A stretch of 64,000 nt of DNA from Escherichia coli (GTDB lineage: Bacteria; Pseudomonadota; Gammaproteobacteria; Enterobacterales; Enterobacteriaceae), in assembly GCF_013315695.1 (NCBI RefSeq), contig NZ_CP054353.1; one strand, 5' to 3'. The notes beneath the pieces were generated by a model, which was not told the DNA's origin, made no database searches, and saw nothing but the letters and a program-made list of their open reading frames with translations. The position numbers were made by a program, and so were the translations under genes. Positions 18,417-34,366 of this stretch are shown piece after piece (position 1 is the first letter of the stretch; each line of letters begins with the position of its first letter).

Positions 18417-18932
<516 letters not shown>

Positions 18933-18939
18933 CACTAAC

Positions 18940-18965
18940 GCCCGCACATTGCTGCGGGCTTTTTG
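18940..18965 (+). terminator. Rho-independent terminator after uspF
   Basis: Stem gcccgca / tgcgggc with 6-nt loop followed by TTTTT. Confidence 0.6.
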
Positions 18966-19107
18966 ATTCATTTCGCAAATGTGCTGACATTTTCCCCTCT
19001 AATCCGTACCATACACGCCACAGTTTTTATATCAGATTTCTTATGCTGGGCGTTCCGGCATGACGCATACTCTTCTGATGCCATATAACGAATTGAGTCG
19101 CTTTTAA

Positions 19108-19161
19108 ATGTCGCAAAATCAAGAAATTAGTAAGAAAGAACAATACAACCTGAACAAGTAA
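19108..19161 (+). pseudogene. ttcC: ttcA-like 5-prime fragment marking the prophage attR
   Basis: ATG TCG CAA AAT CAA GAA ATT AGT AAG AAA GAA CAA TAC AAC CTG AAC AAG TAA encodes [17 protein letters not shown], a diverged copy of the TtcA N-terminus ([17 protein letters not shown]) at 33431. Confidence 0.7.
19132..19157. repeat. Prophage attachment core, right copy (26-bp direct repeat)
   Basis: aagaaagaacaatacaacctgaacaa, identical to 33455..33480 inside the ttcA start. Confidence 0.75.
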
Positions 19162-19257
19162 GGGCAAAAATCACAACTCTCTGACTCATAAGTATTTTAC
19201 TTATTTTTCAATGTGTTAAATATCATCAGCGACAACAATAAGCTACGATAACCCACT

Positions 19258-19310
19258 CTTTTTTTGCCCCTTTTTTGCCCCTTTTGCAGCGCTTTGCCCC
19301 ATTTTTGCCA
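19258..19310. repeat. Cluster of four TTTTGCC(CC) direct repeats
   Basis: tttttgcccc ttttttgcccc ttttgcagcgc tttgcccc atttttgcca; between attR and the sitA regulatory region. Confidence 0.4.
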
Positions 19311-19421
19311 TCAACAATTTTCCTCATCAAGTCATTTCAAAGCCTAATAGGTGCCCTACTTTTTTCCTCAGTACCACGTCGCCAGCAGGAAACAACCTAA
19401 TCCCGGTTCGGATCTAAAATT

Positions 19422-19440
19422 GCTAATGATAATCATTTTC
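19422..19440 (+). promoter_or_regulatory. Fur box upstream of sitA
   Basis: gctaatgataatcattttc matches the 19-bp Fur consensus GATAATGATAATCATTATC at 16/19 positions. Confidence 0.6.
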
Positions 19441-19462
19441 ATTTTGTATTGCTTATGCTATA

Positions 19463-19484
19463 AAACATAGCCGTTGCTATGTTT
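19463..19484 (+). promoter_or_regulatory. MntR operator upstream of sitA
   Basis: Perfect palindrome aaacatagc-cgtt-gctatgttt, the MntR-box architecture, 33 bp upstream of the sitA ATG. Confidence 0.7.
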
Positions 19485-19516
19485 GTTCTAATTTTGCTCA
19501 CTATAGGTACTAAATT

Positions 19517-20431
19517 ATGTACTCAATAAAAAAAGTAACCATGCTCTTGGGGTGCCTCGCCCTCACCTGCTCGATCGCATTTCAGGCGAGTGCAACTGAA
19601 AAATTCAAGGTCATTACAACATTTACCATCATCGCAGATATGGCCAAAAACGTGGCTGGAGATGCTGCAGAAGTCTCATCCATAACCAAGCCCGGTGCAG
19701 AAATTCATGAGTATCAGCCTACCCCTGGCGATATTAAACGTGCGCAGGAGGCACAACTGATTCTCGCCAATGGTATGAATCTGGAATTGTGGTTCCAACG
19801 CTTTTACCAGCATCTTAATGGGGTTCCAGAAGTAATTGTCTCTTCGGGTGTGACGCCAGTAGGGATCACTGAAGGCCCCTATGAGGGCAAACCTAACCCC
19901 CATGCCTGGATGTCGCCAGATAATGCTCTGATTTACGTCGATAATATTCGTGATGCGTTGATAAAATACGATCCGGCAAATGCACAAACCTACCAACGTA
20001 ATGCCGATACTTATAAAGCCAAGATTACCCAAACCCTTGCCCCCCTGCGTAAGCAGATTGCTGAACTCCCTGAGAATCAGCGATGGATGGTCACCAGTGA
20101 AGGGGCTTTTTCTTATCTCGCACGCGATTTGGGGCTAAAAGAGCTTTATCTGTGGCCGATTAATGCCGATCAACAAGGCACGCCGCAGCAGGTACGTAAG
20201 GTTGTTGATATGGTGAAGAAAAATCATATCCCGGCAGTCTTTAGCGAGAGTACGATTTCCGATAAACCAGCGCGTCAGGTTGCGCGTGAAACCGGCGCGC
20301 ACTACGGCGGTGTACTCTATGTCGATTCCCTGAGCACAGAAAACGGCCCGGTACCTACGTATATCGACCTTCTGAAGGTTACTACCAGTACGCTGGTACA
20401 GGGAATTAAAGCCGGGAAAAGGGAGAAATAA
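19517..20431 (+). CDS. sitA: Mn/Fe ABC transporter periplasmic substrate-binding protein SitA
   Basis: 304-aa ORF with signal peptide, cluster-9 metal-binding family (SitA/YfeA/MntC-like). Confidence 0.9.
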
Positions 20432-21258
20432 TGATGCAATCTGCGGGCATTGTCGTTAATGATGTTACTGTCACCTGGCGTAACGGGCACACAGCACTGC
20501 GCGATGCATCCTTCACAGTACCAAGTGGATCTATTGCCGCTCTGGTTGGGGTAAACGGTTCCGGAAAATCGACGTTGTTTAAAGCGATTATGGGATTTGT
20601 GCGTCTGACCAGCGGAAAGATATCTGTTCTGGGTATTCCCACGCGACAGGCGCTACAGAAAAACCTGGTTGCCTACGTCCCTCAGTCAGAAGAGGTTGAC
20701 TGGTCATTTCCTGTACTAGTGGAAGATGTGGTGATGATGGGCCGCTATGGGCACATGGGTATGTTGCGTATAGCCAAAAAGAGGGATCGTCAGATTGTCA
20801 CCGATGCGCTGGAACGTGTCGATATGGTGGATTTTCGCCATCGACAAATCGGCGAGCTTTCCGGTGGACAAAAGAAACGCGTCTTTCTGGCGAGAGCGAT
20901 TGCACAGCAGGGTGATGTGATCCTGCTGGATGAACCTTTTACCGGCGTTGATGTGAAAACCGAAGCGAAAATCATCAGCCTGTTGAGGGAGTTACGCGCG
21001 GAAGGCAAGACGATGCTTGTCTCAACGCACAATCTCGGCTCAGTCACGACATTTTGCGATTATACGGTCATGGTCAAAGGCACCGTCCTGGCAAGCGGGC
21101 CGACAGACACCACTTTTACAGCCGAGAACCTGGAGCTGGCTTTTAGCGGCGTACTGCGCCATGTCACACTTAACGCCTCGGAAGAAAGCATTATTACTGA
21201 CGATGAACACCCTTTTGTGGCACATCGACCGTCAGCGGTGCAGAGGGAAGCAAGATGA
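20431..21258 (+). CDS. sitB: Mn/Fe ABC transporter ATP-binding protein SitB
   Basis: 275-aa ORF with Walker [13 protein letters not shown] signature LSGGQKKR and Walker B ILLDEP. Confidence 0.9.
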
Positions 21259-22112
21259 ACGTGCTACTGGAACCCTTCAGCTATGAATATATGCTCAATG
21301 CGATGTGGGTCTCGGCGATGGTCGGCGGTCTCTGCGCTTTCCTGTCATGCTATCTGATGCTAAAAGGCTGGTCGCTGATTGGCGATGCGCTGTCGCACTC
21401 TATTGTCCCGGGTGTTGCGGGGGCATATATGCTGGGGCTTCCGTTTTCTCTGGGAGCCTTCTTTTCCGGCGGACTGGCAGCGGGCAGCATGCTGTTTCTT
21501 AACCAACGCACTCGCTTAAAAGAAGATGCCATCATCGGCCTGATCTTCTCCTCCTTTTTTGGCCTGGGGCTGTTTATGGTGTCATTGAACCCGACATCCG
21601 TGAACATTCAGACCATCGTCCTAGGCAATATTCTGGCAATCGATCCGGCGGATATCCTGCAACTCACTATCATTGGCATTCTCTCGATCATCGTGCTTTT
21701 TTTCAAATGGAAAGATCTTATGGTGACCTTTTTCGACGAGAATCACGCCCGTGCTATTGGATTGCATCCGGGCAGATTAAAAATCCTCTTCTTCACCCTG
21801 CTGTCGGTTTCGACCGTTGCGGCGCTGCAAACGGTTGGTGCCTTTCTGGTGATCTGTCTGGTGGTGACTCCCGGTGCAACAGCATGGTTGTTAACCGATC
21901 GTTTTCCCCGCCTGCTCATAATTGCTGTAACTATTGGCAGTGTAACCAGTTTCCTCGGCGCGTGGGTCAGTTACTTTCTGGACGGCGCGACAGGTGGAAT
22001 CATCGTGGTGGCGCAGACACTGCTGTTTCTTTTAGCATTTGTATTTGCGCCCACCCATGGGCTTTTGGCAAATCGTCGGCGTGCGCATAAAGCGCTGGAG
22101 GATCGCTCATGA
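21255..22112 (+). CDS. sitC: Mn/Fe ABC transporter permease SitC
   Basis: 285-aa polytopic membrane ORF; start overlaps the sitB stop. Confidence 0.9.
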
Positions 22113-22966
22113 TGGCATTATTACTGGAGCCACTGCAGTTCACCTTTATGAGTCACGCACTGCTGATTTCACTGGTAGTTTCCATACCCTGTGCGCTGCT
22201 GTCGGTCTTTCTGGTCCTGAAAGGTTGGGCACTGATGGGTGACGCGATGAGTCATGCGGTTTTTCCTGGCATCGTGCTTGCCTGGATTCTGGGGTTACCT
22301 CTGGCTACAGGGGCATTTATCGCCGGAGTATTCTGCGCGGTGGCGACGGGATACCTGAAAGACAACAGCCGAATCAAGCAAGATACAGTGATGGGGATTG
22401 TTTTTTCTGGCATGTTTGCCGCAGGTCTGATCTTGTATATTGCAGTCAAACCAGACATACATCTTGACCATATTCTTTTCGGCGACATGCTCGGGGTAAC
22501 CATCGGCGATATAATCCAGACGATGATTATTGCCGGGCTGGTTACACTTGTTATTAGCGTAAAATGGCGGGATTTTTTGCTGTTCAGCTTTGATTATCAA
22601 CAGGCGCAGGTAAGCGGTTTGCATACGCGATGGCTGCATTATGGGCTGCTGTGCATGGTTTCCCTGACCATTGTGGCGACGCTGAAAGCAGTAGGTATCA
22701 TTCTCTCCATTTCTCTGCTCATTGCGCCTGGCGCCATTGCGGTACTCCTGACACAACGCTTTCATATTGCACTCCTACTGGCGACTGGCATATCGGTAAT
22801 AGTCTCAATGACTGGTGTTTGGCTGTCCTTTTTTATCGACAGCGCACCCGCTCCGACGATTGTCGTCTTATTCGCGGTTGTGTTCATCATGACGTTTACC
22901 GTTATCAGTTTCAACGCACGCACAAAGGGAAACGCTCATAGACAGGATCTGTTATCCCCCAATTAG
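22109..22966 (+). CDS. sitD: Mn/Fe ABC transporter permease SitD
   Basis: 285-aa polytopic membrane ORF paralogous to SitC; start overlaps the sitC stop. Confidence 0.9.
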   Translation: MMALLLEPLQFTFMSHALLISLVVSIPCALLSVFLVLKGWALMGDAMSHAVFPGIVLAWILGLPLATGAFIAGVFCAVATGYLKDNSRIKQDTVMGIVFSGMFAAGLILYIAVKPDIHLDHILFGDMLGVTIGDIIQTMIIAGLVTLVISVKWRDFLLFSFDYQQAQVSGLHTRWLHYGLLCMVSLTIVATLKAVGIILSISLLIAPGAIAVLLTQRFHIALLLATGISVIVSMTGVWLSFFIDSAPAPTIVVLFAVVFIMTFTVISFNARTKGNAHRQDLLSPN

Positions 22967-25148: not shown

Positions 25149-25652
25149 TTATTGATAGTGTTTTATGTTCAGATAATGCCCGATGACTTTGTCATGCAGC
25201 TCCACCGATTTTGAGAACGACAGCGACTTCCGTCCCAGCCGTGCCAGGTGCTGCCTCAGATTCAGGTTATGCCGCTCAATTCGCTGCGTATATCGCTTGC
25301 TGATTACGTGCAGCTTTCCCTTCAGGCGGGATTCATACAGCGGCCAGCCATCCGTCATCCATATCACCACGTCAAAGGGTGACAGCAGGCTCATAAGACG
25401 CCCCAGCGTCGCCATAGTGCGTTCACCGAATACGTGCGCAACAACCGTCTTCCGGAGCCTGTCATACGCGTAAAACAGCCAGCGCTGGCGCGATTTAGCC
25501 CCGACATAGCCCCACTGTTCGTCCATTTCCGCGCAGACGATGACGTCACTGCCCGGCTGTATGCGCGAGGTTACCGACTGCGGCCTGAGTTTTTTAAGTG
25601 ACGTAAAATCGTGTTGAGGCCAACGCCCATAATGCGGGCTGTTGCCCGGCAT
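25149..25652 (-). CDS. insB: IS1 InsB frame
   Basis: 167-aa ORF identical to the other InsB copies. Confidence 0.9.
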
Positions 25653-25846
25653 CCAACGCCATTCATGGCCATATCAATGATTTTCTGGTGCGTACCGGGT
25701 TGAGAAGCGGTGTAAGTGAACTGCAGTTGCCATGTTTTACGGCAGTGAGAGCAGAGATAGCGCTGATGTCCGGCGGTGCTTTTGCCGTTACGCACCACCC
25801 CGTCAGTAGCTGAACAGGAGGGACAGCTGATAGAAACAGAAGCCAC
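25571..25846 (-). CDS. insA: IS1 InsA
   Basis: 91-aa ORF identical to the other InsA copies. Confidence 0.95.
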
Positions 25847-31928: not shown

Positions 31929-32144
31929 ATGGCACAAGTAATCTTTAATGAAGAGTGGATGGTTGAATACGGCCTGATGCTTCGCACTGGTCTGGGGGCC
32001 AGACAAATTGAAGCATACCGCCAGAACTGTTGGGTGGAGGGCTTCCACTTCAAACGAGTATCTCCTTTAGGTAAGCCAGACAGCAAACGAGGGATTATCT
32101 GGTACAACTATCCAAAGATAAATCAGTTTATCAAAGACTCATGA
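31929..32144 (+). CDS. xisR: Rac-prophage excisionase
   Basis: ORF track 31905..32144; ATG at 31929 gives [44 protein letters not shown]... (71 aa); stop overlaps the intR start region. Confidence 0.8.
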
Positions 32145-32145
32145 T

Positions 32146-33379
32146 ATGTCTAAATTACCAACAGGTGTCGAGATTAGAGGTAGATACATTCGCATCTGGT
32201 TCATGTTTCGAGGAAAACGATGTCGGGAAACATTAAAAGGCTGGGAGATTACAAACAGTAATATTAAAAAGGCCGGAAATTTAAGAGCGCTGATAGTTCA
32301 TGAAATAAACTCCGGTAAATTTGAGTATTTAAGACGTTTTCCCCAGTCCAGCACTGGGGCAAAAATGGTGATAACGAGAGTCATAAAAACGTTCGGAGAG
32401 CTTTGTGATATCTGGACAAAAATTAAAGAGACAGAGTTAACAACAAACACAATAAAGAAAACGAAATCACAATTAAAAACACTCAGAATAATAATTTGTG
32501 AAAGTACCCTGATATCACATATTCGTTATAGCGATATCTTAAACTACCGGAATGAACTGCTGCATGGAGAAACGCTTTACCTGGATAATCCAAGATCCAA
32601 CAAAAAAGGAAGAACCGTGCGCACAGTTGATAACTATATCGCCCTGCTCTGTTCGCTGTTACGTTTTGCGTATCAGTCGGGATTTATATCAACCAAACCA
32701 TTTGAAGGAGAAAAAATTACAGCGAAACAGAATAAAGCCTGATCCGTTATCTAAAACAGAATTCAATGCATTAATGGAAAGTGAAAAAGGACAGAGCCAG
32801 AACATGTGGAAATTTGCAGTTTACTCAGGACTTCGTCACGGGGAACTGGCAGCTCTGGCGTGGGAGGATGTGGATCTCGAAAAGGGAATAGTGAATGTCA
32901 GAAGAAACCTGACGATACTTGATATGTTCGGTCCCCCAAAAACAAATGCCGGGATCCGGACAGTAACACTACTGCAGCCTGCTCTTGAAGCACTGAAGGA
33001 GCAATACAAACTGACCGGGCATCATCGCAAAAGCGAAATCACCTTTTATCATCGGGAGTACGGCAGAACCGAAAAGCAAAAACTGCATTTTGTTTTCATG
33101 CCCAGGGTGTGTAACGGAAAACAAAAACCTTATTACTCGGTAAGCAGTTTGGGGGCAAGGTGGAATGCAGCAGTAAAACGTGCTGGTATTCGCCGCCGTA
33201 ATCCGTACCATACGCGGCATACTTTTGCCTGCTGGCTGTTGACGGCAGGAGCGAACCCGGCATTTATAGCCAGCCAAATGGGGCATGAAACTGCGCAGAT
33301 GGTGTATGAAATTTACGGTATGTGGATTGATGACATGAACGACGAACAGATAGCCATGTTGAATGCGCGGTTATCATAG
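32146..33379 (+). pseudogene. intR: Rac-prophage tyrosine integrase, apparently split by a +/-1 frameshift near 32709-32716
   Basis: ORF 32146..32742 (198 aa, ...STKPFEGEKITAKQNKA*) and ORF 32552..33379 carry the N- and C-terminal parts (catalytic ...HTRHTFACWLL...) in adjacent frames; frames switch in the run gagaaaaaatt; the sum of the parts is about 411 codons. Confidence 0.7.
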
Positions 33380-33430
33380 TTGCAAAGTTTGCCCCCAATT
33401 TGCCCCATTTAGTACCAGAGAACTGAAATA

Positions 33431-34366
33431 ATGCAAGAAAATCAACAAATTACAAAGAAAGAACAATACAACCTGAACAAATTACAAAAACGTCTGCGTC
33501 GTAACGTGGGCGAAGCCATTGCTGACTTCAATATGATTGAAGAAGGCGATCGCATCATGGTTTGCCTCTCCGGGGGTAAAGACAGCTATACCATGCTGGA
33601 AATTCTGCGCAATTTGCAGCAAAGCGCGCCAATCAATTTTTCGCTGGTGGCTGTTAACCTCGATCAAAAACAACCGGGCTTCCCGGAACACGTTCTGCCC
33701 GAGTATCTTGAAAAGCTGGGCGTTGAGTACAAGATTGTGGAAGAGAACACTTACGGTATCGTGAAAGAGAAGATTCCGGAGGGCAAAACCACTTGCTCAC
33801 TGTGTTCTCGTCTTCGTCGCGGTATCCTTTATCGCACCGCAACGGAACTGGGGGCGACGAAGATCGCGTTGGGTCACCATCGTGACGATATCCTGCAAAC
33901 GCTGTTCTTAAATATGTTCTACGGCGGCAAGATGAAAGGTATGCCTCCGAAACTGATGAGCGATGATGGCAAACATATCGTGATTCGCCCGCTGGCCTAC
34001 TGCCGCGAGAAAGATATTCAGCGCTTTGCCGATGCAAAAGCGTTCCCGATTATTCCGTGCAACCTGTGCGGTTCACAGCCTAACCTGCAACGTCAGGTGA
34101 TTGCTGACATGTTGCGTGACTGGGATAAACGTTATCCGGGGCGTATCGAGACGATGTTCAGCGCGATGCAGAATGTGGTGCCATCGCATCTGTGCGATAC
34201 CAACCTGTTCGATTTCAAAGGCATTACCCACGGTTCTGAAGTGGTTAACGGGGGTGATCTGGCGTTTGATCGCGAAGAGATCCCTCTACAACCGGCGGGT
34301 TGGCAGCCTGAAGAAGATGAAAATCAGTTGGATGAGTTACGACTGAATGTGGTTGAAGTGAAATAA
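33431..34366 (+). CDS. ttcA: tRNA 2-thiocytidine(32) synthetase TtcA
   Basis: 311-aa ORF with PP-loop SGGKDS and CxxC motifs; the att core lies inside its first 50 nt. Confidence 0.95.
33455..33480. repeat. Prophage attachment core, left copy (26-bp direct repeat)
   Basis: aagaaagaacaatacaacctgaacaa, identical to 19132..19157. Confidence 0.75.

Follow-up and report, generated by a model that had tools for sequence, protein, structure and literature searches.

Predicted arm-type integrase binding sites in a tandem-repeat array at the outer end of a Rac-type prophage attachment arm in Escherichia coli

The locus studied here is a 14.3-kb Rac-type prophage remnant inserted in the ttcA gene of an Escherichia coli chromosome. 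Its features are collected in Table 1, where all positions refer to the window, i.e. the whole 64,000-nucleotide stretch of DNA that was analysed, read 5' to 3' on one strand. The element that we take to be IS1, recognised from its InsA/InsB sequences, lies within the remnant between sitD and the Rac early region, and may mark a deletion of the late genes. The 2-bp deletion in intR splits the gene into open reading frames of 198 and 275 amino acids.

Table 1. Features of the prophage remnant and its attachment-site arms (positions in the window)
Feature	Coordinates	Strand	Remarks
uspF	ends 18932		
ttcA 5' fragment, displaced	19109-19162		
26-bp identity block (att core region), first copy	19132..19157	+	uspF-side junction; inside displaced ttcA fragment; direct read
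P arm, inner part, integrase-distal	19158..19258	+	empty-site genomes match only to 19157
First tandem pair, candidate arm-type sites, P arm	19259..19281	+	cTTTTTTTGCCCC TTTTTTGCCCC; TTTGCCCC at 19263-19270 and 19274-19281, 11 bp apart
Spacer/degenerate unit between pairs	19282..19292	+	TTTTGCAGCGC; motif-free spacers in phi315 and Fels-1
Second tandem pair, candidate arm-type sites	19293..19310	+	TTTGCCCC at 19293-19300; TTTGCCA at 19304-19310; outer end of att arm
sitABCD	19517-22966		
IS1 (presumed)	25149-25846		InsA/InsB-like ORFs
recE and recT	about 28.0-31.4 kb		
xisR, excisionase gene, DUF1233 family	31929..32144	+	coordinates derived from K-12 gene length
intR, cognate tyrosine integrase, pseudogene	32146..33379	+	2-bp deletion near 32710 vs K-12
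Tandem motif pair, integrase-proximal (P') arm	33388..33406	+	TTTGCCCCC AA TTTGCCCC
ttcA, intact	33431-34366		
26-bp identity block, second copy	33455..33480	+	inside intact ttcA

A preliminary description of this DNA had noticed a TTTTGCC(CC) direct-repeat array between the uspF-side att site and the sitA promoter. Both the array and its position were borne out. The plus strand of 19259-19310, read directly from the 64-kb window, is cTTTTTTTGCCCC TTTTTTGCCCC TTTTGCAGCGC TTTGCCCC ATTTTTGCCA, and units of the TTTGCCCC type are indeed present. The same description had counted four copies phased 10-11 bp apart; the four T-tract plus GCCCC units were confirmed (starts at 19263/19274 and 19293/19304) but the even phasing was not, as the spacing of 11, 19 and 11 bp resolves them into two tandem pairs. 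Three units carry exact TTTGCCCC, at 19263, 19274 and 19293, and the fourth, at 19304, is a degenerate TTTGCCA. A poor fifth unit, TTTTGCAGCG (19282-19291), lies between the pairs. It was rejected as a site, since the spacers of relatives at that position, in phi315 (CAAACAACCACAC) and in Fels-1, carry no motif; this unit is thus probably a mere spacer. In the K-12 naming used by Liu et al. 2015 (PMC4632033), the uspF-side att site is called attR.

Comparison of genomes placed the array in phage DNA. Genomes with an empty site align only as far as 19157, while the Rac prophage of K-12 (DH1) aligns through 19310 and no further, and in K-12 the array adjoins ynaM, ydfK and pinR, a sit operon being absent there. 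Thus, the array is part of the phage arm rather than of sit. It is absent from the empty bacterial site and forms the outer part of a 153-bp integrase-distal arm, termed P by the lambda convention, 105-153 bp out, in DNA common to K-12 Rac. The array lies about 200 bp upstream of sitA, where operator or UP-like elements regulating sitABCD might be sought. However, at least five different sequences adjoin the array on its right, among them that of K-12 Rac; the sit promoters of plasmids and of CFT073 lack it, though the plasmids keep a remnant of the last unit; and a promoter and terminator scan found nothing at the array. An Rfam scan of 18800-19700 likewise matched no RNA family there. Its association with different neighbours in other strains excludes sit regulation, the probability of which we put at practically nil.

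The sit region itself was compared in other replicons. In plasmid pQnrS1_035148 (aligned to 19301-19520) homology upstream of sit starts at the last repeat unit, TTTGCCAT, and in the second sit copy of CFT073 it does not start before about 19331. A copy at the prophage end may have given rise to the plasmid copy. The sequence GCTAATGATAATCATTTTC at 19417-19445 resembles a Fur box, and AAACATAGC-N4-GCTATGTTT at 19463-19484 is a perfect palindrome at the position expected for MntR in a sit promoter. Both elements are conserved in the plasmid and CFT073 copies.

The motif is also present in the opposite arm. The sequence that immediately follows the intR stop codon is TTGCAAAG TTTGCCCCC AA TTTGCCCC ATTTAG, with copies at 33388 and 33399 that are 11 bp apart and in the same orientation as the array. 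This P' pair begins 9 bp after the stop codon, ends 48 bp before the identity block, and is identical in sequence in K-12. The motif is thus found in both arms, always on the plus strand (19263/19274/19293 and 33388/33399), and is distinct from the core, AAGAAAGAACAATACAACCTGAACAA. When joined, the two ends give a reconstructed attP with a 75-bp P' arm, a 26-bp core and a 153-bp P arm. On its int side two sites are separated from the core by 48 bp; on the other side four sites, as two pairs, are 105-153 bp away from it.

We determined how often such an arrangement arises by chance. Exact TTTGCCCC was found eight times on both strands of the 64-kb window against 3.24 expected from shuffles, and five of the eight copies fall within the two prophage arms, about 235 bp in total. 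A Poisson estimate gave about 0.012 exact copies expected in the arms, and a probability of about 2e-12 for five or more. With a weight matrix built from 20 non-Rac sites of other phages, tandem pairs (10-11 bp apart) were detected only at 19266/19277 and 33391/33402 in the whole window, whereas 200 dinucleotide shuffles scored at 9 bits yielded a mean of 0.02 pairs. Single matches of at least 9 bits are common, with 27 in the window. Since the motif is short and its single matches are common, the case rests on clustering together with comparative conservation.

The cognate integrase has a domain suited to such sites. Residues 4-68 of IntR match the Pfam family PF12167 (Arm-DNA-bind_2; E value 3.8e-26) and its catalytic domain matches PF00589; the integrase of phi315 (933W-type) also carries PF12167. 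According to passages of the classification paper PMC8138268, the PF12167 arm-binding domain defines the IntBPP-1 subgroup of tyrosine recombinases, which includes the integrases of BPP-1, Stx2a phage and Gifsy-2, termed "putative integrases" by the authors, and which is predicted to bind arm sites. The 933W type, Fels-1 and Rac are members of this subgroup. The paper classifies proteins, and the passages seen give no DNA motif for the arm sites.

Relatives of IntR were collected by tblastn against phage genomes, which gave a set of 42-44% identity and, in addition, phiCTX at 31%. The att regions of the 42-44% relatives are unrelated to that of Rac in sequence and carry the same TGCCCCA motif in the same layout, with two sites at the 3' end of int, followed by a further two or four located 100-135 bp past the crossover region. 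In phi315 (933W-like, 44%) the two sites at the int 3' end read CGTGCCCCAGACGTGCCCCAAA, and four GCCCCA units spaced 11, 20 and 11 bp follow about 190 bp on. Fels-1 (43%) has two sites at the int 3' end and four distal ones, spaced 10, 20 and 11 bp, about 114 bp past its 17-bp core. In Klebsiella phage RothC (42%) the two int-proximal sites, TGCCCCATCCATGCCCCAT, recur as an identical 19-mer with two sites 207 bp later, and Yersinia phage 210.17 (42.5%) has two sites in either place. The comparison with the attP arms of Rac-type phages, which had been proposed as a check, was thus positive. In phiCTX, which integrates at a tRNA-Ser gene, the layout is kept but the motif is changed: one pair of GTTCCCA copies lies at the 3' end of int and a second pair beyond the tRNA-Ser core. 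These tandem pairs (2120-2145 and 2290-2315 of its locus, L090) provide a candidate arm-site motif for the phiCTX integrase. No such motif was found downstream of int in phage LLS, the integrase of which is 31% identical. Among relatives that integrate in ttcA, with 65-71% integrase identity, the P' pair is present at an unchanged offset despite differing flanks.

The int-proximal pair of the 933W-like, RothC, Fels-1 and Yersinia phages is part of the int coding sequence (2740-2761 in L005, 2721-2739 in L006, 62-77 in L093 and 76-87 in L095). There it encodes a C-terminal ..AP..P.. tail that IntR does not have, so that one and the same DNA specifies the tail of the integrase and the sites it is proposed to bind.

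A wider sample was taken from IMG/VR. Among the loci of IntR relatives, 75 of 80 are prophage predictions cut 3-6 bp past the int stop, and the P' arm could be compared in the remaining five only. A reverse scan with the pattern TGCCCCN{4,6}TGCCCCN{12,16}TGCCCC recovered further four-site arrays among the matches listed, where a family integrase match, weak at 23-28% identity, was nearby in only 4 of 80. As so few family integrases lie near these loci, the reverse scan is no test of specificity. One G+C-rich metagenome contig (L112, minus strand, about 680-870) carries GTGCCC/GTGCCCC units in a contiguous 2+4 layout, adjoining a tyrosine recombinase whose identity to IntR is just 23.5%; the 2+4 layout may extend far beyond enterobacterial phages.

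The comparison with other phages also bears on DNA bending and nucleoid-protein binding, two further options raised in the preliminary description. Phased A-tracts should bend DNA, att arms need bending, and the array does contain tracts of T7, T6, T4, T3 and T5 every 10-11 bp or so; it could then be an intrinsically curved segment, or a Fis, H-NS or IHF site, with no specific integrase contact. Phased T-tracts are indeed present in Rac, yet they are not the feature that is conserved, as the relatives keep GCCCC(A) and not the T-tracts (RothC AATGCCCCATCCATGCCCCATCA; phi315 TATGCCCCAAA and AGCGCCCCAAA). Moreover, GCCCC is G+C-rich and not the type of target used by H-NS or IHF, and in phiCTX the motif changes along with the integrase. 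Neither option agrees with what the relatives conserve, and we assign this explanation only a small probability.

Of 5426 complete E. coli genomes, 1512 carry the arm, which is annotated in hardly any of them. Column statistics over six divergent E. coli variants of the arm gave 57% invariant columns and 80% mean pairwise identity for the inner arm (19158-19258), 85% and 92% for the array (19259-19310), and 9% and 44% for the 35 bp beyond it (19311-19345). Within E. coli no other block of the arm is as well conserved as the array. In the same six variants the four site cores jointly are invariant at 28 of 31 columns and the spacer at 7 of 11. The array could alternatively be low-complexity DNA born by slippage, without function and conserved because the prophage is young. 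Slippage does happen, and strain 23CRST038 (aligned to 19260-19270) is short of exactly one 11-bp array unit, a loss consistent with slippage between tandem copies. However, the array is better conserved than the neighbouring arm DNA, where variants differ by up to 33% pairwise, and motif and geometry recur in the unrelated attP of five other phages. We consider a functionless origin very improbable.

At the outer end, ATTTTTGCCA is kept in all eight variants and inter-variant homology ends right after it, with at least five different sequences abutting the array at 19310/19311. The loci compared at this edge were the window, L002, L087, L143 and L219-L221, and the neighbours past ATTTTTGCCA are sit, the ynaM side of K-12, and those of O111, ETEC6334, UMNF18 (L143) and STEC711. 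As judged from these alignments, the att arm ends on its outer side in a mosaic junction with variable cargo.

Tandem direct repeats in the P arm of phage lambda are typical of Xis sites, and it was pertinent to ask if the repeats were instead sites for XisR, the recombination directionality factor, comparable to lambda X1, X1.5 and X2. XisR does shift an attR fragment of 294 bp in which the array is included (PMC4632033; the primers were mapped onto K-12 here). However, the AttM control probe of that study (3260-3550 of L002) holds the whole array (3362-3413 of L002) and gave no shift with XisR (PMC4632033). Since both probes hold the array and XisR shifts only AttR, the array alone is no XisR site. 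Besides, the motif occurs in the int-proximal arm too, where Xis sites are not expected. Four relatives have their int-proximal sites within the coding sequence of int, at a distance of 45-70 bp from the core, where P'1-P'3 lie in lambda. The repeats are thus neither confined to one arm nor bound by XisR on their own, and we see only a slim chance that they are excisionase sites.

Some elements nearer the core were also noted. The inner P arm holds a core-proximal AAAAATCAC at 19166-19174. The inverted copy GGGCAAAAA (19162-19170), beside the core, was rejected as an arm site because its GGGC varies in O111 and ETEC6334; the adjoining AAAAATCAC is conserved in both variants. At 19166-19174, directly past the crossover region, AAAAATCA(C) is common to several attP of the family (about 2826-2834 in L006, and the arms of Fels-1, L135 and L160). 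Together with the XisR mobility shifts, positive for AttR and negative for AttM, this suggests a core-proximal site, for core-type Int or XisR, straddling 19158. Between the P' pair and the core, AATCAACAAATTA at 33440..33452 (+) matches the IHF consensus WATCAANNNNTTR exactly, one of 14 exact matches on both strands of the whole window. In the inner P arm, TTTCAATGTGTTA at 19206-19218 is IHF-like with one mismatch, and this TTTTCAAT..GTTA element is conserved in the attP of phi315 and RothC. Both IHF candidates are matches to the consensus only.

The remaining option of the preliminary description, arm-type recombinase sites, received strong support, and we consider it likely that the array consists of arm-type binding sites for the Rac-type IntR in the P arm. 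This prediction draws on the position of the array in the phage arm, the presence of the motif in both arms, the arm-binding domain of IntR, the motif and geometry shared across the family with the concerted change in phiCTX, and the selective conservation within E. coli. In the mechanism proposed, the N-terminal domain of IntR (residues about 4-68) would recognise the TGCCCC(A) units, while these protomers would contact the 26-bp ttcA crossover region through their core-binding and catalytic domains. IHF would probably bend the DNA separating the arm sites from the core, at the two consensus-like sequences (33440-33452 and 19206-19218), allowing Int to bridge arm and core, and a lambda-like recombination complex would assemble. 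Different subsets of sites may serve integration and excision, as in lambda. That IntR actually binds, that IHF takes part and that subsets of sites are used we infer here.

Arm-type sites are a textbook kind of element, and the attP of lambda, with P1, P2 and P'1-P'3, resembles the Rac-type attP in size and geometry, about 250 bp overall. In both, sites lie in the phage arms on either side of a short crossover region and serve (in Rac, are proposed to serve) a separate N-terminal domain of a heterobivalent tyrosine integrase. Common to both are also int-proximal tandem copies about 10-11 bp apart and 45-75 bp from the core, distal-arm sites 105-150 bp out, and IHF-like sites, candidates only in Rac, between arm sites and core. 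The two differ in the arm motif, C/AAGTCACTAT in lambda and TGCCCCA in the Rac type, and in the arm-binding domain, which is PF12167 in Rac and not of the lambda type. Lambda P1 and P2 are separated and mutually inverted, whereas the distal arm of Rac has two tandem pairs, all direct. The motifs of the arm-binding direct repeats in P2 and 186 attP (tgTGGaCa and tgccGCCActt) differ from that of Rac, as does the integrase subgroup, and their distal arms have two sites as against four in Rac, 933W and Fels-1. A literature search found no binding or mutational evidence for IntR at the array sequences and no description of arm sites for the Rac, 933W, Fels-1 or phiCTX integrases, most subscription journals being outside that search. 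The array would be an ordinary, known kind of element, and it is the DNA motif for IntBPP-1 integrases that is proposed here.

We lean, if only somewhat, towards a general arm-site code for the PF12167 (IntBPP-1) integrases, comprising a tandem TGCCCCA pair at the 3' end of int together with two or four further units, placed 100-135 bp past the crossover region, and with the outer edge of the distal array as a preferred junction for cargo such as sitABCD. If this is true, attP limits and prophage ends would be predictable from sequence alone, and the PF12167/IntBPP-1 subgroup, Shiga-toxin phages included, would have a testable DNA motif. For Rac-type elements, the predicted arm sites would set the functional limits of the attachment site at about 254 bp (33380-33480 joined to 19158-19310) and would explain why the homology of the mosaic prophages stops exactly at 19310. 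As intR is frameshifted in the present strain, the array sites would be relics here, unless a Rac-type Int acts in trans. Self-excision of the remnant has probably been lost, and sitABCD would thereby be fixed at the locus. The frameshifted intR next to intact sites would thus mark a locked-in remnant, with the SitABCD iron/manganese transporter fixed beside uspF.
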